64,000 nt of DNA. It comes from an uncultured Bacilli bacterium (lineage in GTDB: Bacteria > Bacillota_I > Bacilli_A > RF39 > UBA660). The stretch covers positions 79,152-143,151 of the forward strand of contig CANREL010000002.1 in assembly GCA_947629655.1 (NCBI GenBank), given 5' to 3'. Within the stretch, counting starts at the first letter, position 1. Each line of letters starts with the position of its first letter. Under the pieces are notes generated by a model. That model worked only from the letters and a program-made list of their open reading frames with translations, had not been told where the DNA came from and did not search any database. This document shows, one piece after another, positions 5,357 through 19,058 of the stretch. Both the position numbers and the translations under genes were made by a program.

Positions 5357-6370
5357 TTATTTGACATTGTCAAGTGTAAAGTTATCATTATTAATAATTT
5401 CAATAATTTCCTCACCATGAAGTTTTAGTTTTGTATTATCAAGTATTTTTGAATCTTTTAATTTTTCAATTGTATTTGGTTTTTCTTTAACTAATCTTTC
5501 AAGTTCAGCATTATTAAATACGTAATAAGCAGGTATTTTTCTATCTCTACTCTTCTTAGTTCTAAATTCTTTGAGTCTTGTTTCTAACGCAATATCATAT
5601 TCCATTGGTGATTCAGTATTATTTTCTTGTTCAATTTTTCCATATTTATCTTTTAGTTCTCTTACTCTTGTAATATTAGCATTTAAAAAGCCTTCACTAT
5701 TATCAAGCATCTGTTTTTGCGTAGATAAATTATCCCATGTTGTATTATTGTATTCTTTTTTCAAATATTCATTTAACTGATCAATTTTAACAATGTGATC
5801 TTTAATTTCTTTTGGTGCATATTTAATATTTAAGATACCTTTAGGATTACAAAACACTACTAAAGGTCGATACCAACTACTAAAATTTTTTTCAAACAAC
5901 AATTGACTCAATTTACCATTACGTTCTAACCATCTTTTCTTTATGAGTTCAATATGGCGCAAAGCCTGACGATATGGTGAATATATTGATTCTTTAATAT
6001 GTTTGCCATTTATATAATATTCTCTAACAAATTCCCCTTTATTATCAACAGTAACGTTTCCAATTAGATTTTTACATTCAACTATATAAGTCGCAGCTGG
6101 TGTATTTATAATATAATCTATTTGTGCTGTTAAGTCTTCATATGGCAAAGTTATATCATGTAATACATAAATTCCTAAATCACTTGTTTTTAGTTCATAT
6201 TCGATTTGTCTTTCACCCATTAAACCTAACTCTAATTTTTTAATATCGATATCTAATTTTTCTTTATCTTTTACTTGTTCACGAATACTTTTTAATTCAG
6301 CAATTTCTTTTTCTAATTCACTATCAGACTTTAAAAAAATCGTTTCTCTAAATCTATCAAATAATGCCAT
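5357..6370 (-). CDS. NERD (nuclease-related domain) protein with an HRDC-like C-terminal region
   Basis: NERD signature GERQIEYEL...VLHDITLP...IDYIINTPAATYIVECKNLIGNV and a C-terminal PAYYVFNNAELERLV...LHGEEII segment. The likely ATG is at 6370, with an AGGTGG RBS overlapping the mnmA stop. Confidence 0.7.
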   Translation of the reverse strand: MALFDRFRETIFLKSDSELEKEIAELKSIREQVKDKEKLDIDIKKLELGLMGERQIEYELKTSDLGIYVLHDITLPYEDLTAQIDYIINTPAATYIVECKNLIGNVTVDNKGEFVREYYINGKHIKESIYSPYRQALRHIELIKKRWLERNGKLSQLLFEKNFSSWYRPLVVFCNPKGILNIKYAPKEIKDHIVKIDQLNEYLKKEYNNTTWDNLSTQKQMLDNSEGFLNANITRVRELKDKYGKIEQENNTESPMEYDIALETRLKEFRTKKSRDRKIPAYYVFNNAELERLVKEKPNTIEKLKDSKILDNTKLKLHGEEIIEIINNDNFTLDNVK

Positions 6371-6379
6371 AAATACCAC

Positions 6380-8121: not shown

Positions 8122-8400
8122 AATTCACCAACTTTCTTTTTTTATTATATCATACGGCAAATGTTGTCAGCAACCTAACTTAATTACAAAAAAAGCAAAC
8201 CAATGGTAGAGATTTAATTTCATCTATTCTTGTATTTACTGATAAAATCTTACTTAATTAATACTACATATTTCTATGAGGTAAGGAGTTTTATTGTCTT
8301 TTTAATAAAAATTTGTTTTTTATTTATGTTTTTTGAAAGTAATAACATAAAAAATAATAACAAAATATACCTTAAATAAGTTCTTAAAAAAAATTTAAAT

Positions 8401-8443
8401 TTTAAAAATTAAAAAACTATATTAAGTATAACACTTAATATAG
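8401..8443 (-). terminator. Rho-independent terminator of the RHS-immunity transcript (11-bp perfect inverted repeat)
   Basis: CTATATTAAGT ataac ACTTAATATAG, followed on the minus strand by TTTTTTAATTTTT. Confidence 0.5.
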
Positions 8444-8512
8444 CAAAATTATTATTTATATATAATAAATTTAAATGAGAAAAATATTTTTGTTTGCTTT
8501 TAATAAATAATT

Positions 8513-9052
8513 CTATGTTCTTTTTTTACTATTATAATAATCAATTCTTTTTTTATCTTCACAATATTTGATTGATTCCTTTGCTGTTTTATTCAAATAT
8601 TCCAATATTTCACTTGGTTCATCAAAATTAATATTTGGCTCAGCATAGTAAAAGTTAATATTATTTTTTTTACACCAATCTATAATTATTCTTTTTTCTT
8701 CTTCTCTTCTAAACTCTTGAAATTCTCCCCATAAATCATTATCTTCACAAATACAATGAAATAAATTGAAATATGATATCAATTCGTTATCATCTATTAT
8801 TTTAATTCTATCCTTATCAATTACTAATTTATTAAACAAGGTTTTAATTTCTTTATTATTTTGAAAATTAATAGCAAACTCAATATTTTTATAAAAGGGA
8901 ATTTTAGGAACTTTAATGTAATTTTTTTTACTTTTAACTTTCAAATTTATAAAATCATATTCCTCTATAATTTCTAACGAATTAATATTAACATAATAAT
9001 CAATTATTTCATGAGTAAATGGTAAAATCAAATCATATATGTTTATTTTCAT
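8513..9052 (-). CDS. Putative cognate immunity protein of the RHS C-terminal toxin (179 aa, cytoplasmic, K/E/N-rich)
   Basis: Its ATG is 9 nt after the RHS stop, and an AAGGAGG RBS overlaps that stop. There is no signal peptide. The position is the canonical rhs-rhsI arrangement. Confidence 0.55.
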   Translation of the reverse strand: MKINIYDLILPFTHEIIDYYVNINSLEIIEEYDFINLKVKSKKNYIKVPKIPFYKNIEFAINFQNNKEIKTLFNKLVIDKDRIKIIDDNELISYFNLFHCICEDNDLWGEFQEFRREEEKRIIIDWCKKNNINFYYAEPNINFDEPSEILEYLNKTAKESIKYCEDKKRIDYYNSKKRT

Positions 9053-9061
9053 AAATCCTCC

Positions 9062-12000
9062 TTATGGTGTGAAATTTCCATACCAAATATGTACAGTATG
9101 ATATATATCATGATAATGACCATAATAATTAGGTCCATATCCATGGGTTTCTGGCACATCTACAAGTCTTGTTCCACTTTTCGAAACTTCTTCTGCTAAT
9201 GCCCTAGCATGAGCTTGATCTAATGTATAAATCCCTATCTTAGCTTTTCTACTTCCGTTCATTAACCTCAAAGCATTTATTTGTTTCTCTGCTTCTTCAA
9301 AGGTTAATGGCGTTGGTACAATAACCAGTTTATTTTTTTTATTAACAGTAGCAGGAAAATAAACTTTTTCATTTTTCTTTGGCTTTGAAGCTTTTGTATC
9401 TGGCAGTTTTCTAGTTTTAGAAATTGCAGCTTGAACTGCTTCAGTAAGATTTACTGCAATGCCCTTAAGACCATTTAATAATGATGGGAACATTGCTAAT
9501 CCAAGAATTCCAAGAACAGTTAATAATTCACCTGTACTAATTCCTAAAACTGCTAATGCAGCTTCAAATGGAAAATTACCATCAGGATCACTATAATTAA
9601 TTGGATTATTATGACAATACTCATATAAATTATACCCTGATATTTTATTATTTTCAACTAATATACTGTCTGCATTAATAAATCTACACCATTTTGGATT
9701 ATAATATCGACTGTTTAAATAATATAGTTTAGTTTCTTCATCATAATAATAACTTCTATATCTAAATGGATTAATATGACCAATATTATTATTATCTATT
9801 ATTTCAATACCATTTTCATCTTTTATAGATAAAATATTTCCCCATGAATCATATTCATAATTAACAACTTTAACATATTGTTCATTTAATATACCAACAA
9901 TATCGTTTTGTAAATTTTTTACATAATAGTATTTAGTTCCATTTATTGATAATCCAACAATACCTGTATGATCATATAGATAATATATTAAATCATTTCC
10001 GCGTTTTTCAAAAATAATATTCTTATCTTCTAAATAATAATTTATTTCTGTGTTATTTACCTTTTTACCTATTCTTATTCCATCTTTGTTATATTTATAC
10101 TCTACATATAAATTATTGATAATATCATTATAGGAATTTAATTCTCTACCATTTTTCCACTTCAATAAAATATTATTACCTATAGATGCAGGATTTCCAA
10201 TCATATCATATGATATCATCTGTTCATTAATTTTTGTTAACTTATCTTCCCATTCAACATCATCATATGAATAAATACATTCATCTATAATTTCTAATGT
10301 TTCAATATTGGTAATAGTTTTTCTCAATAAATTACCATTTAAATTGTAGATATAATTAATTTGTATATTTGAATTAAAATCTAATTCTTTTATTAGTTCA
10401 TTATAATCATCATAATAGTAGCTTTTTAGTAAAATACCATTACAGTAAATATCTGTGATATTATTCAATTTATCATATTTATAATTAAATATGTCATCTC
10501 CATTTTTTAAACTATCAATCAATAAAGAACTTTTTTTACCATGCAATTTATATTTATAATTTAAATCAAAATTATTTCCAATGTTTTTACTTATTAATCT
10601 ACCAAGGCTATCATAATTATAATATATTGTACTTTCATCTAATGTTGTTTTTATTACATTTATATTACTATCTAGTTCATTATCTATATTATGATAATAA
10701 TTTTTCAACTTAATTTTTTTACCAACTATCTTATTATTAGCACTATAATTATAATTAATTCTGAAATCATTAAATCTATATTCTTTTATTTTTTTTCCAA
10801 TATCATATGAATATTTTTCAGTATAATTATTGGATAAAATTTTAGTCAAATTTCCATTATTATCATATTTTAATTTATATTTATCATCAGATTTGATAAT
10901 ATTATTTAATCTAGAAAATTCATCATAATTAAATAGTATTTCATCTTTATTTCCATAAATAACTTTTGATAAACTTTCATTATTTTCTTTATATTCATTT
11001 GTAACTAATGTTATTGAATCCCCTATTGTTACTTTACTATTATTTAAGAAATTATCATAACTAAACTTATAATTTTTATTTCCAAAAATAATTTCATTAA
11101 GTTGATTGGAACTATTATAATTAAATGTTACTTTTCTATCTTTATTTGTTATAGATGTAATATTTTTTTTACTATCATATTCATAATAAGTTGTTTGATT
11201 TTTTGGATTTGTTATTGATTTAGTCAATCCATTTTTTTCATCTATATCATAATATGTAGTATTAGAATTACTATCAGTTTTACTTGTGATAAACCTACCA
11301 TCAGTAGTATATGTAGTTTTTTCTTCAATGAATTCTTCACATACGTTTTCTAAATAAAATTCAAATGAAGAATCATTGTATATTAATGGAGAAAATTCTA
11401 AAAAGTTATTATTCATCTTTAAATATATATCTTCATCTTCAAGTTTAATATAACAACTTCCATTATCTCTTGGTTCAAAAACAAACAAATTATTTTTATT
11501 AGAAGTAGTTAAATAAATATTACCTTCTAAATATGCAAATGAATAATTTGGCATCTCTGAAAAAATAATTTTATATTTATTATCAATTTTTTCTAAATTC
11601 CATATTGGATCACTACAATTATTATTATCTACAATAATCTCTTTTGTATTTTTTACTCTTAAATATTTATTGGTTCCTTTGACTCTAATCCGATAACTTC
11701 CATTTGACAATTCTTTACTCCATTTTTTTGAAGTCCTACAAACAGTTTCATTTCCAAATGAATCATATTTTGATTCTTTAACAAGCCCATTTGATGATAT
11801 TGAACTTAGTACTCTATCCTTAATTTCATTATCATATTCATATTTTAGATTTTCACCTTCTAATCCAGTTACAGTTAATAATTGATTATCTTTATTATAA
11901 CCAAATTTATTATCACTATTACCAACATTGTCTTTAATTGAAGATATGTTTCCATTAACATCATATTCATAATAATTTGTTGCTAGATCTTTAAATAAAG

Positions 12001-15000
12001 TTAGATTAGTAATATAAAAATCGTTTGCATTTCTTCCTTGATGAAAATCTAGTATTATTGATTTATAATCCCATTCTGCAACAAAATCATATGAAAAATA
12101 TTGCCAAATATTATCACTGTTATTAAATTCTGTGCTTGGCATTACACATTGTTCAATCTGACTGCCATCAGCTGGAATAAAATACATAGTTACATTATTT
12201 GCAACAAATTCTCCATCCCCATTTATTCCTTCATTTTTATACCAAAAAGATATACGATATAAATCCCCACTTTTTCCTTTTACTATAAATTCTTTTGAAA
12301 AACTTGAATAATTAAAAGGATCCATTTTAACTTTCAAAGCAGTATTCTTGTTATCATTGAAATTAACTAATTCAAATACTTTGTTTGTATCTACTGAAAT
12401 ATCATCAAAACTATCAAGAACATGAGCAGATAAATTCCAATCATCTAATCCATCAGAAAAATCGGAATTTTCAATTATATTATAATTGTTAACTACTTCT
12501 CCTTCTTCTAATTGTATATCATCAATATATGTCATACCTTCATCGTGAAACTTAATTACAATTGACAAATCAGTAAGTGCATCTTCTGCATAAAAAATTG
12601 TAACATCACTACGTTCAAAATTATCAGATATTTCAACCTCTTCATAACTATTAATATCAATACCATCTTTATTTAAGTAACTTAAACATAATTCAATTTT
12701 ACTTTGATTTTTAAAATAGCCACTAAAAGTATAATATTTACCTTTTGGTACAGAAAGAGTATAGCTTAAAAATTGGTCATTTGAAGTACTTAAAGCACTA
12801 AAACATCTATTACCAGAGTAAGAGCATTCATCTGTAATGCCAGTCGGCATTTTTCCATTAGAGGAAAAATATAGAGTTTCTTCTTCAAAACTAGAATTTT
12901 TTATATAGTTTTTAACATAACGAACAGGAATAGTATCCTTTAATAGCTTATTTTTTACATTTTTATCCTCACCATAATACTGAGTTATAGAATATGCATT
13001 ATTTATATCTTCACTAGAAAATAAACTATTATTAGATAAAACATTACCATTTGAATTAAATATTAATGTATTTTGTTTACCAAAATGATCAATAATGGTA
13101 GTTGTAAGAAATCCATAATTTAAAGAAAAGAAGTTACCTAGTGTATCGTTTAAACCATACTGTGTTACTTTTTTTATTTTAAATGGATATTCTTCATAAT
13201 AATCATATTTATTCTTCATACCAGTTACATCTGTAATACAATTTATTAAATTATTATTATTATATTCAAAATTAGTTATACCATCTTCTGTTTGAATTGA
13301 AACAACATTTTTATTATTATAATTTATTTTTGTTGTTGTATATGAACTCTCAACACTAATACAATTAGATTCATAATTAACATTAATTTCCGAACTATTT
13401 TCATCACAAATTTTAGTAATTAAATTATTATCATTTCGTTCTATTTTTAATATATTATTACTAATGTTTGTAATACTTGTAAGATACCAAAGTGTACCAA
13501 ATTTTGTAAAAGTCATTTTATTCGTGTATTGATCTGTCATAATATAATCACTATCTATTTTTTCTATAGAAAGATTTAAACCATCTTCATCATAATATAC
13601 ATTAGATGTATTAACATCATTTTCGCCAAATGCTAAATCTTTAATAAAATAATGGATTGTTCCATCATCATCAATATACTCTAAATAATCTTGTTCTTCT
13701 ATTTTTAATTCCCTAATAGTTTGATCTAAATTTAATCTATAGCCCTTACCATATATAGTATTATTATTTAATACTACATCATTTGTATTATATACCAAAT
13801 CTAAATTTCCCTTTAATTTGCTACCTACTGTAGAACCTAAATTCCAAATTCCTGTCAAATTACCATTAAAACAATTAACATAAGTCTTTCCATTTTCAAA
13901 GCATTGTTCTTTATATTCTAAATATTCTTCTAATCCATTTTGATTTCGATATACAATTTCTAGTGTAGGTTGAAGATTAGAGGTTTCATCACTATTTTTT
14001 GAAATAAAGGCTGGAAAATTATCATCTATATAAACTTCATTAGGCGATTTGATCATTATTCCATAATTTGGTGTTCCTGTATACCATTTTTTTACTAAAT
14101 TAGTTATATCATTATACGGAGATGATACAGTAACGATTTCATCATCATCATCAGTAAAACTTCTACTACAATAATATATACTTTCAACTTTACTAGAATA
14201 TTTATCATTCATAGTAGACCAATTTGCAGTTTTTTCATCCCAATCTTTAGTAATTCTATGAATTGTAACTAATTTATTATTATTAGGTTTATTCTCAACT
14301 GCTGGAAAAGAAATTAATTGTAACCTAGCAAAAATTATTTCACTTCCAGTTCCTATTTTTGGTAAATCAAATTTTACTAATGTTCTATTAATATAATCAA
14401 CACCATTTAATCTCTCTACTCCTGCTTTTAATATATTTTTACTATTTCTATCAACATTTGTATCGTTTGGATAAATATATGTATCATATACATTACCACC
14501 ATCTATAAAATTAGAAATTGTTGGATCTATTGAAACTGGAAAAATTGTATCATTAGAATTTAACCACTCTGAATCTAATGTTAATTCAAGTTCATAAATT
14601 CCATTAAACTTTTTTAAATTATAAAATATATTATTATTAATATTATTATTAGAATCAAACATATATGGTTGTTCAATTTCAAATATAACATTATTATCTT
14701 TTTTAGCAATTATTGAATTTTTATCAATAGATAATTCTAAATTAGTATTTACTAGAAAGTTTAGCTTATCAATAATCTTCTCTCTTTTATTTATTACTAT
14801 TGTTTCTTTAACTTTATTAGGTGTTGTTTGATATTTTATATCAATTCCATCTAATATATCTTTATAAATTATATTACTAATTAATTTACTATTTTGTTTT
14901 TCTTTTCTAGCAAAAACATCGTTAGAATCCTTTAATTTCATTTCTAAATAATCATTTTCTTTTTCCATTCTAACGATTGTATTACTGCTATGTTCATTAT

Positions 15001-15196
15001 AGTACACTTTAAAATTATTAGAGCTATTGCAAAAATAATTATCTTTTTTTATTAAAGTATTATCTATTTCTTCAAATTTACCATCTTTAAAATAATGAAT
15101 ATCATTACTATACATTTTAGCAACAATCGTACCATCTTTTTGTAAAAAGTGCTTTTCTTTTTTTCCTCTTTTTTCAATTAATTCAATTTCTTTCAA
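9062..15196 (-). CDS. RHS/YD-repeat polymorphic toxin (2044 aa). Two tandem CBM-like modules map at about 12.0-12.9 kb and a ricin-B/beta-trefoil lectin at about 11.40-11.70 kb. The RHS core ends ...YLNSRYYNPKWCRFINADS, followed by NYSDPDG. The 171-aa C-terminal toxin maps to 9062-9577.
   Basis: Many YDxxGR(L) repeats (e.g. YNYDSLGRLISK). The RHS-core terminal consensus RYYxPxxxRFxxxD and the DPxG autoproteolysis motif are at 9578-9589. TTG start with a GAGGAGTG RBS. No signal peptide or LXG N-terminus. Confidence 0.9.
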   Translation of the reverse strand: MKEIELIEKRGKKEKHFLQKDGTIVAKMYSNDIHYFKDGKFEEIDNTLIKKDNYFCNSSNNFKVYYNEHSSNTIVRMEKENDYLEMKLKDSNDVFARKEKQNSKLISNIIYKDILDGIDIKYQTTPNKVKETIVINKREKIIDKLNFLVNTNLELSIDKNSIIAKKDNNVIFEIEQPYMFDSNNNINNNIFYNLKKFNGIYELELTLDSEWLNSNDTIFPVSIDPTISNFIDGGNVYDTYIYPNDTNVDRNSKNILKAGVERLNGVDYINRTLVKFDLPKIGTGSEIIFARLQLISFPAVENKPNNNKLVTIHRITKDWDEKTANWSTMNDKYSSKVESIYYCSRSFTDDDDEIVTVSSPYNDITNLVKKWYTGTPNYGIMIKSPNEVYIDDNFPAFISKNSDETSNLQPTLEIVYRNQNGLEEYLEYKEQCFENGKTYVNCFNGNLTGIWNLGSTVGSKLKGNLDLVYNTNDVVLNNNTIYGKGYRLNLDQTIRELKIEEQDYLEYIDDDGTIHYFIKDLAFGENDVNTSNVYYDEDGLNLSIEKIDSDYIMTDQYTNKMTFTKFGTLWYLTSITNISNNILKIERNDNNLITKICDENSSEINVNYESNCISVESSYTTTKINYNNKNVVSIQTEDGITNFEYNNNNLINCITDVTGMKNKYDYYEEYPFKIKKVTQYGLNDTLGNFFSLNYGFLTTTIIDHFGKQNTLIFNSNGNVLSNNSLFSSEDINNAYSITQYYGEDKNVKNKLLKDTIPVRYVKNYIKNSSFEEETLYFSSNGKMPTGITDECSYSGNRCFSALSTSNDQFLSYTLSVPKGKYYTFSGYFKNQSKIELCLSYLNKDGIDINSYEEVEISDNFERSDVTIFYAEDALTDLSIVIKFHDEGMTYIDDIQLEEGEVVNNYNIIENSDFSDGLDDWNLSAHVLDSFDDISVDTNKVFELVNFNDNKNTALKVKMDPFNYSSFSKEFIVKGKSGDLYRISFWYKNEGINGDGEFVANNVTMYFIPADGSQIEQCVMPSTEFNNSDNIWQYFSYDFVAEWDYKSIILDFHQGRNANDFYITNLTLFKDLATNYYEYDVNGNISSIKDNVGNSDNKFGYNKDNQLLTVTGLEGENLKYEYDNEIKDRVLSSISSNGLVKESKYDSFGNETVCRTSKKWSKELSNGSYRIRVKGTNKYLRVKNTKEIIVDNNNCSDPIWNLEKIDNKYKIIFSEMPNYSFAYLEGNIYLTTSNKNNLFVFEPRDNGSCYIKLEDEDIYLKMNNNFLEFSPLIYNDSSFEFYLENVCEEFIEEKTTYTTDGRFITSKTDSNSNTTYYDIDEKNGLTKSITNPKNQTTYYEYDSKKNITSITNKDRKVTFNYNSSNQLNEIIFGNKNYKFSYDNFLNNSKVTIGDSITLVTNEYKENNESLSKVIYGNKDEILFNYDEFSRLNNIIKSDDKYKLKYDNNGNLTKILSNNYTEKYSYDIGKKIKEYRFNDFRINYNYSANNKIVGKKIKLKNYYHNIDNELDSNINVIKTTLDESTIYYNYDSLGRLISKNIGNNFDLNYKYKLHGKKSSLLIDSLKNGDDIFNYKYDKLNNITDIYCNGILLKSYYYDDYNELIKELDFNSNIQINYIYNLNGNLLRKTITNIETLEIIDECIYSYDDVEWEDKLTKINEQMISYDMIGNPASIGNNILLKWKNGRELNSYNDIINNLYVEYKYNKDGIRIGKKVNNTEINYYLEDKNIIFEKRGNDLIYYLYDHTGIVGLSINGTKYYYVKNLQNDIVGILNEQYVKVVNYEYDSWGNILSIKDENGIEIIDNNNIGHINPFRYRSYYYDEETKLYYLNSRYYNPKWCRFINADSILVENNKISGYNLYEYCHNNPINYSDPDGNFPFEAALAVLGISTGELLTVLGILGLAMFPSLLNGLKGIAVNLTEAVQAAISKTRKLPDTKASKPKKNEKVYFPATVNKKNKLVIVPTPLTFEEAEKQINALRLMNGSRKAKIGIYTLDQAHARALAEEVSKSGTRLVDVPETHGYGPNYYGHYHDIYHTVHIWYGNFTP

Positions 15197-15221: not shown

Positions 15222-15893
15222 TTAAGATACTCTCTTCCACATATAAACAGCTAAATATGGAGGTAAATTACTGCTAGCAGAAGTTCCTGGTGAAGTTTTT
15301 CCTGTTTCGCCTGGAGTGGTGCTATTAGTGTTTCCTGCTAATGCAGTAGCTCGTGTATTAGATGTTGATGATGTACCATGGCCAGAGGTTGTCGCCTTAG
15401 TATTGTCTTTCCAACTTGTTACACCAGTTTTAGTTGAGGCATATATACCATTAGCAGTTGCTGATGCGTTAATTAGTGCATAACCATTAGATAGACCATG
15501 AGTATGAGCAGCACTTGTATGAGAATGTGAATCAACAGTATGTGAATGAGTAATGCTACCACCTGTACTACCATTTGCATAATCATTCCCACAAGCTAGT
15601 AAGAAAGTATCTTTTATTTGTTCCCATCCTCCACCAATTAATATATCAGGACTTGTCTCGTTAACAGACATATAGATAGATCCTATTGGATATATTAAAT
15701 TTAAAATTTCTTCTCGTGAAAACATACCTTCCTGTACTTCAAGACTCTTACCAGTAATATGTCCTTCACTGTCAATTCCAAAAGCATTATTTTTAGATGT
15801 TATACATCCAGCAGTTAAATTATCAACTTCTTCATTTACGTTATCTCCATCTTTTGTAAAAGCATTAATTATATAATCATATTCTTCATTCAT
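15222..15893 (-). CDS. Phage tail-collar-domain-like protein with an HxH cluster and a Gly/Ser/Thr-rich tail (223 aa)
   Basis: LIYPIGSIYMSVNETSPDILIGGGWEQI...GGSITHSHTVDSHSHTSAAHTHG...NLPPYLAVYMWKRV matches the phage tail collar pattern (PIG(S/A)I...GW...PPY...). It lies 25 nt upstream of the RHS start. Confidence 0.55.
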   Translation of the reverse strand: MNEEYDYIINAFTKDGDNVNEEVDNLTAGCITSKNNAFGIDSEGHITGKSLEVQEGMFSREEILNLIYPIGSIYMSVNETSPDILIGGGWEQIKDTFLLACGNDYANGSTGGSITHSHTVDSHSHTSAAHTHGLSNGYALINASATANGIYASTKTGVTSWKDNTKATTSGHGTSSTSNTRATALAGNTNSTTPGETGKTSPGTSASSNLPPYLAVYMWKRVS

Positions 15894-15912: not shown

Positions 15913-16935
15913 TTATTTTAAATATTTATTAGCCACATATCCTGTCTTACTATTATATTTAACTTTTGACCAAATGTAGCCATTATTATTTCCAGCATTT
16001 TCTAATAAGACCTCAACTACTTTTTTATGAGGAATTGTTAATATAACACTAGAATTTGTAGTTGCTTTAGATCTTAAATTAAGACCCAATGTAGCATTAA
16101 CTGTTTTTGTTATTTTAGATGTAGTAGATGAAGAAACAAATTTTATATCATCTTCATCCATCCAACCTAAATCCCCCGTAGTATTATAAGGATGTTTTGC
16201 ATTTTTAACATATCTAGTGATTTTTGTTTTTTTATTTGTTACTTTACCAGCTGTGTTTATATAATTTGCAGTTATATATAAATTTCCACTAATAATGACT
16301 TCATCTCCTAAGTTAAATTTATTAGTATTACTTGAACTAGCGGTTCCTTCACTTTTTAAGTTTGAATCAACATTAGAACCATCATAATTTATAAAATTCG
16401 ATTTTCCATGTTTAGTCCATGTTCGTGTATTATAACCATTTCTACTGCCTATATTTCCTACAGCAGTTATTTGAACTCCATCTTTCCATATTGGAGTACA
16501 TTCAACAGCTAAACCATCGCCTATATAAATTCCAATATGCCCACTCATCCATAAAAATTCGCCAGGAACAATAGTGTTAAAATTTGTTGATATATCAGTA
16601 CAATAATTATTAAACATTTGATTGGCATTTTTATCTGGAACACCATTTGAAGCATACTTTGCTCCTCCATAAGTCGCATTGGTCTTTCCAGACCAGCCCC
16701 ACAAAATTCCTTTTATTAGACAAACGCAATCAAATCCAAATGTATTATATTCTGCATTATTTATTTTAGTTGATCTGCTTAATTGCATATTATATGAATA
16801 GTTTTTGGTATAGCGTGATTTATTAGAGGATGTCATTGGTGATCCGAAGCATCCCATTACATATAATGTTTTATATTTAGTTGCAATTTCCTTTATTTTA
16901 TTAACAAGAGTAGTTGCAAGCATGACTTTAGTCAT
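15913..16935 (-). CDS. Signal-less peptidoglycan hydrolase (NlpC/P60-CHAP / Amidase_5-like papain-fold catalytic domain plus two SH3b domains); endolysin-like
   Basis: Catalytic Cys in FGFDCVCLIKGILWGW and His in SGHIGIYIGDGLAVECTP. SH3b-like ...GYIWSKVKYNSKTGYVANKYLK. No signal peptide. Confidence 0.65.
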   Translation of the reverse strand: MTKVMLATTLVNKIKEIATKYKTLYVMGCFGSPMTSSNKSRYTKNYSYNMQLSRSTKINNAEYNTFGFDCVCLIKGILWGWSGKTNATYGGAKYASNGVPDKNANQMFNNYCTDISTNFNTIVPGEFLWMSGHIGIYIGDGLAVECTPIWKDGVQITAVGNIGSRNGYNTRTWTKHGKSNFINYDGSNVDSNLKSEGTASSSNTNKFNLGDEVIISGNLYITANYINTAGKVTNKKTKITRYVKNAKHPYNTTGDLGWMDEDDIKFVSSSTTSKITKTVNATLGLNLRSKATTNSSVILTIPHKKVVEVLLENAGNNNGYIWSKVKYNSKTGYVANKYLK

Positions 16936-17050: not shown

Positions 17051-17305
17051 TTACTTCTTTCCTGACTTGTTTTTTGTTTGAATTTCATAGCCACCGATAC
17101 TTAATGCCATTCCTAAAGATACAATAAGAGCAGTTGCCCAATCATCAAACAAATTCATATAAATTGCTATTATTGCAGAAATTATACCTACAATAATATT
17201 TTGAATAGGAATATATTTTGATGAAACTATTTTATCTTTAGTTATTACTCCAAGTATCGCTGCAACAACCGCTGTAACAACTGCGAAGATAAATTCAATT
17301 GTCAT
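17051..17305 (-). CDS. Holin-like small membrane protein (84 aa; 2-3 TM helices with a basic C-terminal tail KNKSGKK)
   Basis: Hydrophobic helices IEFIFAVVTAVVAAILGVI, IIVGIISAIIAIYM and ALIVSLGMALSIGGY. It lies immediately upstream of the signal-less lysin. AAGGAAGGTGA RBS. Confidence 0.55.
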   Translation of the reverse strand: MTIEFIFAVVTAVVAAILGVITKDKIVSSKYIPIQNIIVGIISAIIAIYMNLFDDWATALIVSLGMALSIGGYEIQTKNKSGKK

Positions 17306-17350: not shown

Positions 17351-18094
17351 TTACCAATTTCCTGACCAAGTAGTCTCTGCACAATCAATTGCGTCATATT
17401 TGTTTATGACACCTGACTCAAAAACAATTCCAGTTGTACCGACTGTATATTTTTTTGAATCGGACAATGTAACACTTGAAGTCGCATGAGCATAATCGCC
17501 GTATGCAAATTGTCTTAATATTGTAGATTGTGTATTTTTTTCTACATCAAAATACATTTTCTGATTTAAAGAAGAAAGATTCCCTGTTGGAACTTGGAAA
17601 GTTACTCCAACACCATTGGATCCAACATAAGAATATTTGTATCCAGTAGATGTATAACAATCATCATTTGTTACACAATAGTTTTCAGCAAATATAGGGG
17701 TAGTGGCAACTTTCACACTAGATGGAAATCCTATAGCAATAGTGTCATAACTTCTTACTTTTGGAATATTTTTCCATTCAAGAGTTACTGTATATCTATA
17801 ATGTGAATCAACTTTTGATATTGATGTTGTCATTTTCTTATATGTTGTTTCTATTGTTGTACTATTTGCATCAATCATTGGATTGTAAGATTCATATTCA
17901 TCTCTTGAAATTTCCACTGTGTATGAATTATTATTTGTTTCATTACTAAAGCTTTGCACAGATGATTGTATTGTAACTGTTTTATAATATTTCGTATTAA
18001 AAGTCTCAAGTATATCTTCTTCTATTTGACTTGCAAAAATTGCAAGTGGACTTATTGCATATAAAATAGAAAACAATACTACAAATTTTTTCAT
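17351..18094 (-). CDS. Secreted protein of unknown function (Sec signal peptide MKKFVVLFSILYAISPLAIFA)
   Basis: AAAGGAGG RBS with the ATG at 18094. The hydrophobic N-terminus is followed by a mature domain with no recognisable motif. Confidence 0.6.
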   Translation of the reverse strand: MKKFVVLFSILYAISPLAIFASQIEEDILETFNTKYYKTVTIQSSVQSFSNETNNNSYTVEISRDEYESYNPMIDANSTTIETTYKKMTTSISKVDSHYRYTVTLEWKNIPKVRSYDTIAIGFPSSVKVATTPIFAENYCVTNDDCYTSTGYKYSYVGSNGVGVTFQVPTGNLSSLNQKMYFDVEKNTQSTILRQFAYGDYAHATSSVTLSDSKKYTVGTTGIVFESGVINKYDAIDCAETTWSGNW

Positions 18095-18224
18095 CGCTAT
18101 CCTCCTTTCCACTTACACTTTAAATAAATAAAAGCGGTAATTAAACTACTTTTCAGGAGAACTTTCTCTCTTTTTAGGAGAAATTTTAATTTAAAATTCA
18201 TCTCTTTTTAAGAGAGTTTCTTAT

Positions 18225-18263: not shown

Positions 18264-19058
18264 TTAATACATTATTTTATTGTTAGTAAACTTTTCTTCG
18301 AAATTTAATTTAATCTTAGTCCTAATTATTTTATCTTGTTCGTTTTTACATTCAATAATTAATTCTAGTTCATCAAGATTTGTATTATAATCAATAACAT
18401 TAGCATTATTTTTCTTTGATTCATCTACACTAAATGATAGTTTTGATAATACTTCACTTAATAACATATCTTCTTCAACTAATTTACTAAAAGATAAGAT
18501 GTTTAGATCATGATTCATAATAAATATATTTATTTCTTTGATTTTAGGTTCATCAGAAGTTCCTCTATTATTTCCTTGATAATTTATATTGTTTATTATT
18601 AATAAATTTTGATTCTGATTAAAAACTAAATATCCATTAATAGCATAATCAGAGTTTAAACTTGATATCGTATATACTTTGCTTTTATTATAATTACTAA
18701 TTAGAAATAGAAAAGAAAAAATAAAAGTAATTATAGTAAAAATTACTATCCCTATAAATATATATTGTTTTTTCAAGAAATCAATATAAAATCTTATACC
18801 TGCAATAGTAGTTTTATTATTAATTTCTTTTTCCTCTTGTTTTATTCTTTCTCCATTCATTATTTCATTTACTGAAACACCTAATATTTGTGATAAATTT
18901 TCTAATTTTGAAAGAGATGGTGCTGTTAATCCTGTTTCCCACTTAGATACTGATTTTCCATTTATACCTAGTTTTTCGCCTAATTCTTCTTGAGTTAACC
19001 TCTTTTCATCTCGCAATTTTGCAATAAATCTACCAATTTTATCTTTATCTAACTTCAT
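18264..19058 (-). CDS. Membrane-anchored XRE-family (Cro/CI-type HTH) transcriptional regulator with an extracytoplasmic C-terminal domain
   Basis: HTH LRDEKRLTQEELGEKLGINGKSVSKWETG, then a TM segment IFIGIVIFTIITFIFSFLFLI. AGGAG RBS. Confidence 0.7.
   Translation of the reverse strand: MKLDKDKIGRFIAKLRDEKRLTQEELGEKLGINGKSVSKWETGLTAPSLSKLENLSQILGVSVNEIMNGERIKQEEKEINNKTTIAGIRFYIDFLKKQYIFIGIVIFTIITFIFSFLFLISNYNKSKVYTISSLNSDYAINGYLVFNQNQNLLIINNINYQGNNRGTSDEPKIKEINIFIMNHDLNILSFSKLVEEDMLLSEVLSKLSFSVDESKKNNANVIDYNTNLDELELIIECKNEQDKIIRTKIKLNFEEKFTNNKIMY

Follow-up and report, generated by a model that had tools for sequence, protein, structure and literature searches.

What does the last part of a very large RHS protein do when it matches no catalogued toxin, and how might a protein of that size, bearing no signal peptide, leave the cell that makes it? 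Both questions are raised by a locus within a 64,000-nucleotide (nt) stretch of contig CANREL010000002.1 (positions 79,152 to 143,151) from an uncultured Bacilli bacterium, here called the window, in which an RHS/YD-repeat gene is followed at once by a small open reading frame (ORF). Judged by their sequences, the tail of the RHS protein and the product of the ORF are a previously unnamed toxin/immunity family of the known RHS polymorphic-toxin kind. With moderate confidence we read residues 1874-2044 as the toxic load that an RHS cocoon toxin would carry and cleave off, a cytoplasmic enzyme built around a cluster of histidines, which would be released by lysis of the producer.

The RHS gene encodes 2044 amino acids (aa), the length also given by the gene caller on metagenome contigs, and starts with TTG, preceded at 7 nt by a GAGGAG Shine-Dalgarno sequence. 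A DNRLRE domain (residues 238-414) is followed by the RHS repeats and then the Rhs-associated core; the repeats match PF05593 (E 9e-14), RHS_core and YD_repeat_2x, and TEN_YD-shell is among the precomputed matches. The core, read directly from the sequence, contains RYYNPKWCRFINADS, a block of the RYYxPxxxRFxxxD type, and then NNPINYSDPDG. A preliminary description of this DNA had placed the end of the core at NYSDPDG, and the TIGR03696 match stops exactly there (Table 1). What is left is a tail of 171 aa that opens with NFPFEAALAVLGISTGELLTVLGILGLAMFPSLLNGL and closes with ETHGYGPNYYGHYHDIYHTVHIWYGNFTP. The locus has what is expected of RHS polymorphic toxins, namely the repeats, an Rhs core with DPxG, a variable C-terminus and an adjoining immunity gene. 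The C-terminus varies on related RHS bodies: the RHS genes of loci L041 and L043 are followed by ORFs of 215 and 243 aa, and no Pfam match was found in the L041 RHS tail. Conversely, the toxin family of the window is also placed behind differing N-terminal architectures. Identical RHS and immunity genes occur on three independent metagenome contigs, and this recurrence, along with the pairing in 35 of 37 other genome loci described below, argues that the arrangement does not consist of chance ORFs.

An exhaustive HMMER scan of 1.84 billion representatives returned 51 relatives of the tail at E<1e-3 (best 1.4e-16), all of them C-terminal. Most have an RHS core and DPxG directly ahead, one follows a Hint domain, and two belong to proteins with a signal peptide; such modular placement behind varied cores is what a polymorphic-toxin tail predicts. 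A degenerate DNA pattern for the histidine motif located 37 loci in one-genome-per-species contigs, nearly all of them gut or rumen Clostridia or Bacilli from metagenomes, together with Youngiibacter fragilis. None were found in viral contigs, plasmids or phage records, and by these searches the family is restricted almost entirely to Firmicutes. Word-indexed protein search was far less productive, yielding nothing with the tail and only three proteins with the family profile.

Alignment A1 gives the family a common plan: a hydrophobic stretch, a basic linker, V-Y-x-x-A-Y-V, then E-A, a variable insert, W-G-I-Y-T-x-x-Q-x-x-A-K-A-L-A, and finally P-E-V-H-G-x-G-x-Y-G-H-Y-H-D-x-x-H-x-x-H-I-W-Y-G, with the C-terminus a few residues on. 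The opening hydrophobic stretch, described earlier as roughly 35 residues long, is a 34-residue run in which the 19-residue Kyte-Doolittle (KD) windows starting at tail residues 6-19 score 1.6-1.94, which is membrane grade. A comparable segment lies within 110 aa ahead of the core in 39 of 46 relatives and is absent in the other 7; its character is kept across the family and its sequence is poorly conserved. The linker fits a family motif, K-T-K/R-x-L-x-D-V/T-K-x-K-x-P, and the toxin core is itself basic, with a median isoelectric point (pI) of about 9 across the family.

Conservation peaks at the histidine- and tyrosine-rich end that the preliminary description had singled out, where the window reads PE-x-H2018 ... 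G-H2027-Y-H2029-D2030-x-x-H2033-x-x-H2036-I-W2038-Y-G. Our conservation figures are drawn from 38 HMMER-derived sequences only, the 37 genome loci having been chosen by a pattern that demands the histidine motif. In RHS numbering, G1988, A1997, L2000, H2027, H2036 and W2038 are invariant, and Y1946, A1949, A1969, Y1990, A2001, H2018, Y2028, H2033 and G2040 are at least 90% conserved. Replacements at H2018 include Q, E and N, all able to bind metal. Strongly conserved polar residues are confined to the final 30 positions and are all His, Tyr or Trp. Because five histidines and one aspartate fall within 20 residues, and no other conserved polar residue is present in the domain, this end looks like a metal-binding or acid-base catalytic centre.

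The ORF downstream supplies the other half of the pair. Its ATG, at 9052, lies 9 nt past the RHS stop and in frame with the RHS gene, and its AAGGAGG overlaps that stop, so the tight coupling claimed for the two genes is real. In 35 of the 37 genome loci, the ORF within a few nt 3' of the toxin belongs to a single immunity family that includes the window ORF, and a hidden Markov model (HMM) of this family, built from alignment A2, recovers 12 sequences that were not used in building it. Nearest to the window ORF are the proteins encoded after the L008 and L005 toxins. Members are soluble and mostly acidic (median pI 5.3), without signal peptide or membrane segment; the window ORF, as stated before, has no signal peptide and no hydrophobic N-terminus (maximum KD 0.72). 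The most conserved feature of the family lies near the C-terminus, W..[FY]E...L...A..WC..N.I.Y, which in the window takes the form W..FE...L...A..WC..N.I.Y. Toxin and immunity identities co-vary (Mantel r 0.63, reached in 0 of 2000 permutations), the immunity proteins diverging faster (median identity 17%, versus 45% for the toxins). A distant relationship of the immunity protein to UPF0158 (PF03682), a family without known function, is possible: residues 30-151 match it weakly, at 19.6 bits against a Pfam gathering threshold of 21.1, and 3 of 24 immunity family members reach E<0.01.

At about 15 of the 37 loci only a truncated toxin end is left (L004, L008, L009, L011, L014, L020, L024, L026, L027, L029, L030, L032, L034 and L035 among them), and nearly all of these stubs are followed by an intact immunity-family gene (the exception is L029). 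We take them to be orphan cassettes. The immunity genes of L016, L022 and L032 are tandem-duplicated (255-339 aa). In the window itself, a six-frame HMM search of all 64 kb recovers a single toxin-family domain and a single immunity-family domain, which leaves no orphan cassettes downstream, and no ORF of at least 50 aa was found in 8122-8512, before the NUDIX gene. What follows the immunity gene is a terminator-like hairpin with a U run (-11.9 kcal/mol, z = -3.5, 0 of 200 shuffles as good), again in agreement with the preliminary description. The consensus terminator scan made no call at this hairpin because it demands G+C pairs and the stem is A+T-rich.

One further locus bears on both families. 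L047 (2210-4864) holds a divergent stand-alone toxin family member, P0048, of 223 aa and with a hydrophobic segment of its own, then a 171-aa ORF outside the immunity family, then an orphan immunity-family gene. On either side of the orphan gene is an ORF, of 105 and 108 aa; these two are paralogues, and a 112-aa ORF in L048 is related to them. A Mu-like transposase is encoded nearby.

Comparison with known toxins leaves the tail as unrecognised as it had first been called. Pfam, NCBIfam, PHROGs and PADLOC contain nothing that matches it at threshold, PADLOC thus relating it to no defence system; scanned singly against Pfam and NCBIfam, none of the 38 relatives reached the threshold of any family; and the family profile has no match among PDB sequences at E<=10. 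The catalogued toxin domains in Pfam and NCBIfam (HNH/AHH/GHH, Ntox, deaminase, ADP-ribosyltransferase, restriction endonuclease, metallopeptidase and others) match neither the window tail nor the 38 relatives significantly, so that no confident assignment to a nuclease, deaminase or ADP-ribosyltransferase emerged. Matches of single members to TraH_2 and to the GspD N-domain were treated as noise. The solved toxins PT1 and PT7 (bioRxiv 10.1101/2021.10.19.465003), assuming that they are deposited in the PDB, were set aside, as the tail has no sequence or fold match there.

AlphaFold2 (AF2), run on alignment A1 for linker plus core, gave a model with a predicted local distance difference test score (pLDDT) of 87.3 and a predicted template modelling score (pTM) of 0.82. 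The topology of the core is beta-beta-alpha-beta-alpha-beta-beta-beta, and the basic linker is packed onto the domain (pLDDT 92-98). A Foldseek search of this model against PDB and BFVD returned nothing significant (best E 0.08, template modelling score <0.4). Judged from hydrophobic periodicity, V2017, Y2028, I2037 and their neighbours in the last three strands, beta4-beta6, would face inward, and the pairs E2016/H2018, H2027/H2029 and H2036/W2038 would then share one exposed face of the sheet, with H2033 and D2030 in a connecting turn. An HNH or beta-beta-alpha-metal nuclease was considered on account of the histidine strings and rejected, since such enzymes follow a beta-hairpin with an alpha helix that supplies a metal ligand, and the model ends 4-5 residues past strand beta6 and has no helix after the hairpin. 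Partial Foldseek alignments of about 55 residues were obtained to the vicinal-oxygen-chelate (glyoxalase/dioxygenase) fold (E 0.6-1.5, probability 0.2-0.35), in which paired beta-alpha-beta-beta-beta modules form a metal cup; the model has one such module.

What chemistry might such a domain perform? We propose a cytoplasmic hydrolase because the domain is basic, of about 100 aa, and matched with an acidic and soluble immunity protein; probably it is histidine- or metal-dependent. An enzyme is preferred to a pore because the conserved polar residues are in the globular end, the hydrophobic segment is unconserved in sequence, and the immunity protein is soluble. Basic toxins with acidic immunity proteins are typical of nucleic-acid-targeting pairs, and a nuclease or phosphodiesterase would be our first guess as to the type of hydrolase; that the target is a nucleic acid is a tentative suggestion, on which we put somewhat less than even weight as a matter of judgement rather than of measurement.

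As for leaving the cell, the N-terminus of the RHS protein has neither a signal peptide nor any hydrophobic stretch, and export by type VII secretion was rejected, as no type VII secretion genes lie in the window. Just upstream of the RHS gene, three genes point to another route: one for a phage receptor-binding-like protein with a Gp10_C domain, one for an endolysin-like protein and one for a holin-like membrane protein. Holin and peptidoglycan hydrolase genes linked to a signal-less cargo are the arrangement of type 10-like lysis cassettes, and the three may form a dedicated module for release and targeting. Over its last 160 aa, the Gp10_C protein shares 32-36% identity with the antireceptor of Lactobacillus delbrueckii phages (Ld25A, Ld3, Ld17, PMBT4). 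In the related phage LL-H, the antireceptor binds lipoteichoic acid. One report (PMC3870949) links the LL-H antireceptor with this polymer. The antireceptor-like region of the window protein carries HxH repeats (HSHTVDSHSHTSAAHTH).

A second RHS lineage (L041-L044) has an RHS body 43% identical to that of the window, with the same start residue and again without signal peptide. Ahead of its RHS gene (L041 5830-17387; also L042, L043 and L044) are a sigma-70-like gene, two receptor-binding-like genes and a 121-aa ORF; after it come a different tail, a different ORF of its own in the immunity position, a peptidase-M15 endolysin and holin_4_1. The receptor-binding-like genes are homologous to that of the window (39% identity), whereas the lysis genes belong to families unrelated to those of the window and sit on the opposite side of the RHS gene. 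That lysis genes recur beside the RHS gene although they are not homologous argues that the association is a working one, and suggests release of the RHS protein by lysis, perhaps with receptor-directed docking. The linkage is tied to the N-terminal subfamily of the RHS protein and not to the toxin family. The distant RHS matches L045 and L046 were uninformative on context.

Two more genes lie just upstream of the holin gene, also on the reverse strand: 17351-18112 encodes a secreted protein of 253 aa without family match, and 18264-19058 encodes a 264-aa XRE-type helix-turn-helix protein with a membrane segment. These genes may belong to the lysis module or serve as its regulator.

We infer cleavage, export route, membrane entry, cytoplasmic action, enzymatic chemistry and toxicity as parts of one course of events. 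The RHS core would cleave itself after DPDG and enclose the tail. The producer would release this signal-less protein by means of the adjacent holin/endolysin pair, and the neighbouring receptor-binding-like protein may aid its docking on Gram-positive cell walls. The hydrophobic segment would then insert into the exposed cytoplasmic membrane of the target; the use of the segment as an entry device fits because it is present in 39 of 46 relatives and only bacteria lacking an outer membrane carry the family. The basic linker and basic domain (pI about 9) would be drawn inward by the membrane potential, and in the cytoplasm the histidine cluster would act as a catalytic, probably metal-binding, hydrolase centre. 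The producer itself would be protected by the translationally coupled immunity protein, soluble and acidic, binding the domain.

The same parts could be put to other uses. The glycine-containing hydrophobic segment (LGISTGELLTVLGILGL) might itself dissipate the membrane potential, as do the glycine-zipper toxins TelE, EsxX and TspA, leaving to the globular domain an accessory role in oligomerisation or regulation. A membrane-active toxin of this sort would suit the membrane-grade segment of the window and most relatives, the lack of enzymatic homology in the globular domain, and a family confined to monoderm bacteria, whose membrane is exposed. The segment is, however, poorly conserved and missing from 7 of the 46 relatives, while the invariant residues sit in the globular domain; it is the globular end alone that orphan stubs keep along with the immunity gene, and it is with this domain that immunity co-varies. 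Protection from pore-formers, moreover, usually requires a membrane-embedded immunity protein, and here that protein is soluble, acidic and without membrane segment. Where glycine-zipper pore-formers have conserved toxic helices and membrane-embedded immunity, this family has its conservation in a soluble domain and its immunity in the cytosol, and we consider a pore unlikely. The segment could also be an anchor, tethering an enzyme at the inner face of the membrane to a lipid-linked or membrane substrate (phospholipid, undecaprenyl phosphate or lipid II). The basic juxtamembrane linker that consistently follows the segment, packed onto the domain by AF2, would be in keeping with this, as would a cytosolic immunity protein and the conserved Trp and Tyr near the histidine cluster, which could be interfacial. 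The absence of the segment from those 7 relatives is again a difficulty, no similarity to lipase, phosphatase or lipid-carrier-targeting families was seen, and a basic toxin with acidic immunity is more typical of toxins that target nucleic acids, so that a tethered enzyme also seems improbable to us.

The release step has a rival of its own, in which the holin, endolysin and receptor-binding-like genes are a decayed prophage remnant that adjoins the RHS gene by chance, and the RHS protein exits otherwise. The holin matches are weak (in Pfam, below the curated cut-offs), the linkage is seen in only two lineages, a relative with the same toxin family has a Sec signal peptide, and G+C is lower over the RHS region, as in mobile DNA. 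Yet no other phage structural genes were found in the window, so a full prophage was rejected; the receptor-binding-like gene and the RHS gene share a strand, with 25 nt between the end of the one and the start of the other; and the second lineage joins homologous receptor-binding-like genes to different lysis families on the other side of the RHS gene, a combination predicted by functional selection and not by shared descent of a remnant. As both RHS lineages are also without signal peptide and the window without type VII secretion genes, we regard a chance remnant as doubtful. Several points nevertheless count against a cytoplasmic histidine-cluster enzyme released by lysis. No homologue or fold match hints at the chemistry of the toxin core. 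A structural or pH-sensing role for the histidines is conceivable, toxicity could reside in the hydrophobic segment, or that segment could simply be a membrane anchor, and E2016 and D2030 are not strictly conserved, which makes the catalytic residue set uncertain. The toxin-immunity correlation is partly expected from co-inheritance through linkage alone, and the single-sequence model of the immunity protein (pLDDT 36.5) is unusable. The lysis-gene linkage is known from two lineages only; and since a Sec signal peptide is present on the related RHS protein of L028, with the same toxin family, dependence on lysis for release is not a trait of that family.

Among known systems, the locus is closest to RHS/WapA-type toxins (Bacillus subtilis WapA, Rhs effectors of type VI secretion systems (T6SS), and TcC of Tc toxins), with which it shares YD/RHS repeats, a core ending in DPxG, a variable C-terminus, a tightly linked immunity gene and, in its relatives, orphan toxin/immunity cassettes. 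It differs in a C-terminal domain that matches no catalogued toxin family, and in its export features: WapA is made with a Sec signal peptide, T6SS Rhs proteins with PAAR/VgrG adaptors, whereas the window RHS protein has neither a signal peptide nor a PAAR match. The membrane helices of Tse6 and prePAAR effectors and the cytoplasm-entry domains of CdiA-CT are membrane-interacting translocation modules. By analogy, the window also sets a membrane module beside a presumed enzymatic toxin domain, and its basic cargo would be compatible with potential-aided entry; its segment differs in its place, within the encapsulated cargo and flanked by the RHS cleavage site and the toxin domain, and has no sequence relation to those modules. 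Large clostridial toxins are known for holin-assisted release. The RHS-containing Tc toxin of Yersinia entomophaga is released by a phage-derived lysis cassette, termed type 10 secretion (PMC10847048). As there, a very large signal-less cargo is encoded beside holin and endolysin genes; here, however, the host is Gram-positive and there is no spanin, release by lysis is a proposal, the cargo, with its immunity gene, is an RHS protein of antibacterial type and not an insecticidal ABC complex, and the receptor-binding-like gene is an extra conserved partner. Tde/Ntox15 HxxD DNases, which are enriched in gut Bacillota, are alpha-helical with a 100% conserved PD(X)3GG (PMC13556189). They too are polymorphic toxins of gut Firmicutes with cytosolic immunity, and H2027-Y-H-D2030 reads as HxxD. 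We rejected this relationship, since the window domain is beta-rich, has no PD(X)3GG and no Pfam match, and D2030 is not invariant.

RHS toxins with unassigned tails are common, and a new tail family alone is therefore incremental. This one is well defined, by about 90 sequences, a confident model without solved-fold match, a cognate immunity family and clear residues to mutate, and it is abundant in uncultured Clostridia of gut and rumen, in which little is known of how bacteria antagonise one another. Its hydrophobic segment bears on how protein toxins cross the membranes of Gram-positive targets. The lead of greatest interest is the conserved linkage, in Gram-positives, of RHS genes that encode no signal peptide to lysis genes and receptor-binding-like genes. 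It offers a testable exit route for RHS/teneurin-like toxins that have no secretion system, a step called unresolved in a 2026 study on teneurin-like proteins of bacteria (PMC13018210). In its broadest form the proposal would be that Gram-positives export signal-less RHS cocoon toxins with a phage-derived kit (holin and endolysin for release, a receptor-binding-like protein for targeting), the cargo being a new-fold histidine-cluster metalloenzyme with its own membrane-insertion segment and no injection machine; as a whole we rate this rather unlikely.

Table 1. Features of the RHS locus and adjoining genes, in window coordinates
Feature	Position	Strand	Details
Intrinsic-terminator-like hairpin and U run	8410..8444	-	hairpin 8416-8444, U run 8410-8415
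Cognate immunity gene	8513..9052	-	179 aa, soluble, pI 5.6; family HMM E 6e-27
AAGGAGG Shine-Dalgarno of immunity gene	9057..9063	-	overlaps RHS stop TAA, 9062-9064
RHS/YD-repeat polymorphic toxin gene	9062..15196	-	2044 aa
Toxin core domain, unnamed family	9065..9364	-	residues 1945-2044, ~100 aa; HMMER, alignment A1, AF2
Histidine cluster	9077..9151	-	residues 2016-2040; presumed active or metal-binding site
Basic linker	9365..9439	-	residues 1920-1944, AVQAAISKTRKLPDTKASKPKKNEK; 8 K/R vs 2 D/E in 22 residues
Pre-toxin hydrophobic segment	9467..9568	-	residues 1877-1910, FEAALAVLGISTGELLTVLGILGLAMFPSLLNGL; 34-residue run, from KD windows
DPDG, presumed autoproteolysis site	9578-9589	-	read from sequence; cleavage presumed from family knowledge
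Rhs-associated core TIGR03696	9578..9853	-	residues 1782-1873; NCBIfam E 4e-19; ends exactly at DPDG
Phage receptor-binding-like protein, Gp10_C	15222..15893	-	223 aa; stop 25 nt upstream of RHS start
Endolysin-like protein	15913..16935	-	C-terminal SH3_3 cell-wall-binding domain; PHROG endolysin E 1e-18
Holin-like membrane protein	17051..17305	-	84 aa; PHROG holin E 1e-5; Pfam holin below curated cut-offs

Some minor observations concern the RHS gene and the rest of the window. Within the RHS body, at about 11650-11730 (residues 1156-1183), is a weak ricin-B-lectin-like stretch (E 0.4), which may be a carbohydrate-binding insertion; it sits in the segment RIRVKGTNKYL...WNLEKIDNKYKIIF, found in the L005 orthologue too. 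G+C falls to 20-25% over the RHS gene (9001-15000), versus 26-33% in the flanking housekeeping genes, which fits horizontal acquisition. On the reverse strand at 5357-6379, a NERD and HRDC protein has weak PADLOC similarity to DpdF, in the HRDC region only, and is probably not a defence system. A gene at 37518-40829, also on the reverse strand, probably encodes a surface protein; its product of 1103 aa has Big_2 domains in repeats along with a hyaluronate-lyase N-terminal beta domain.

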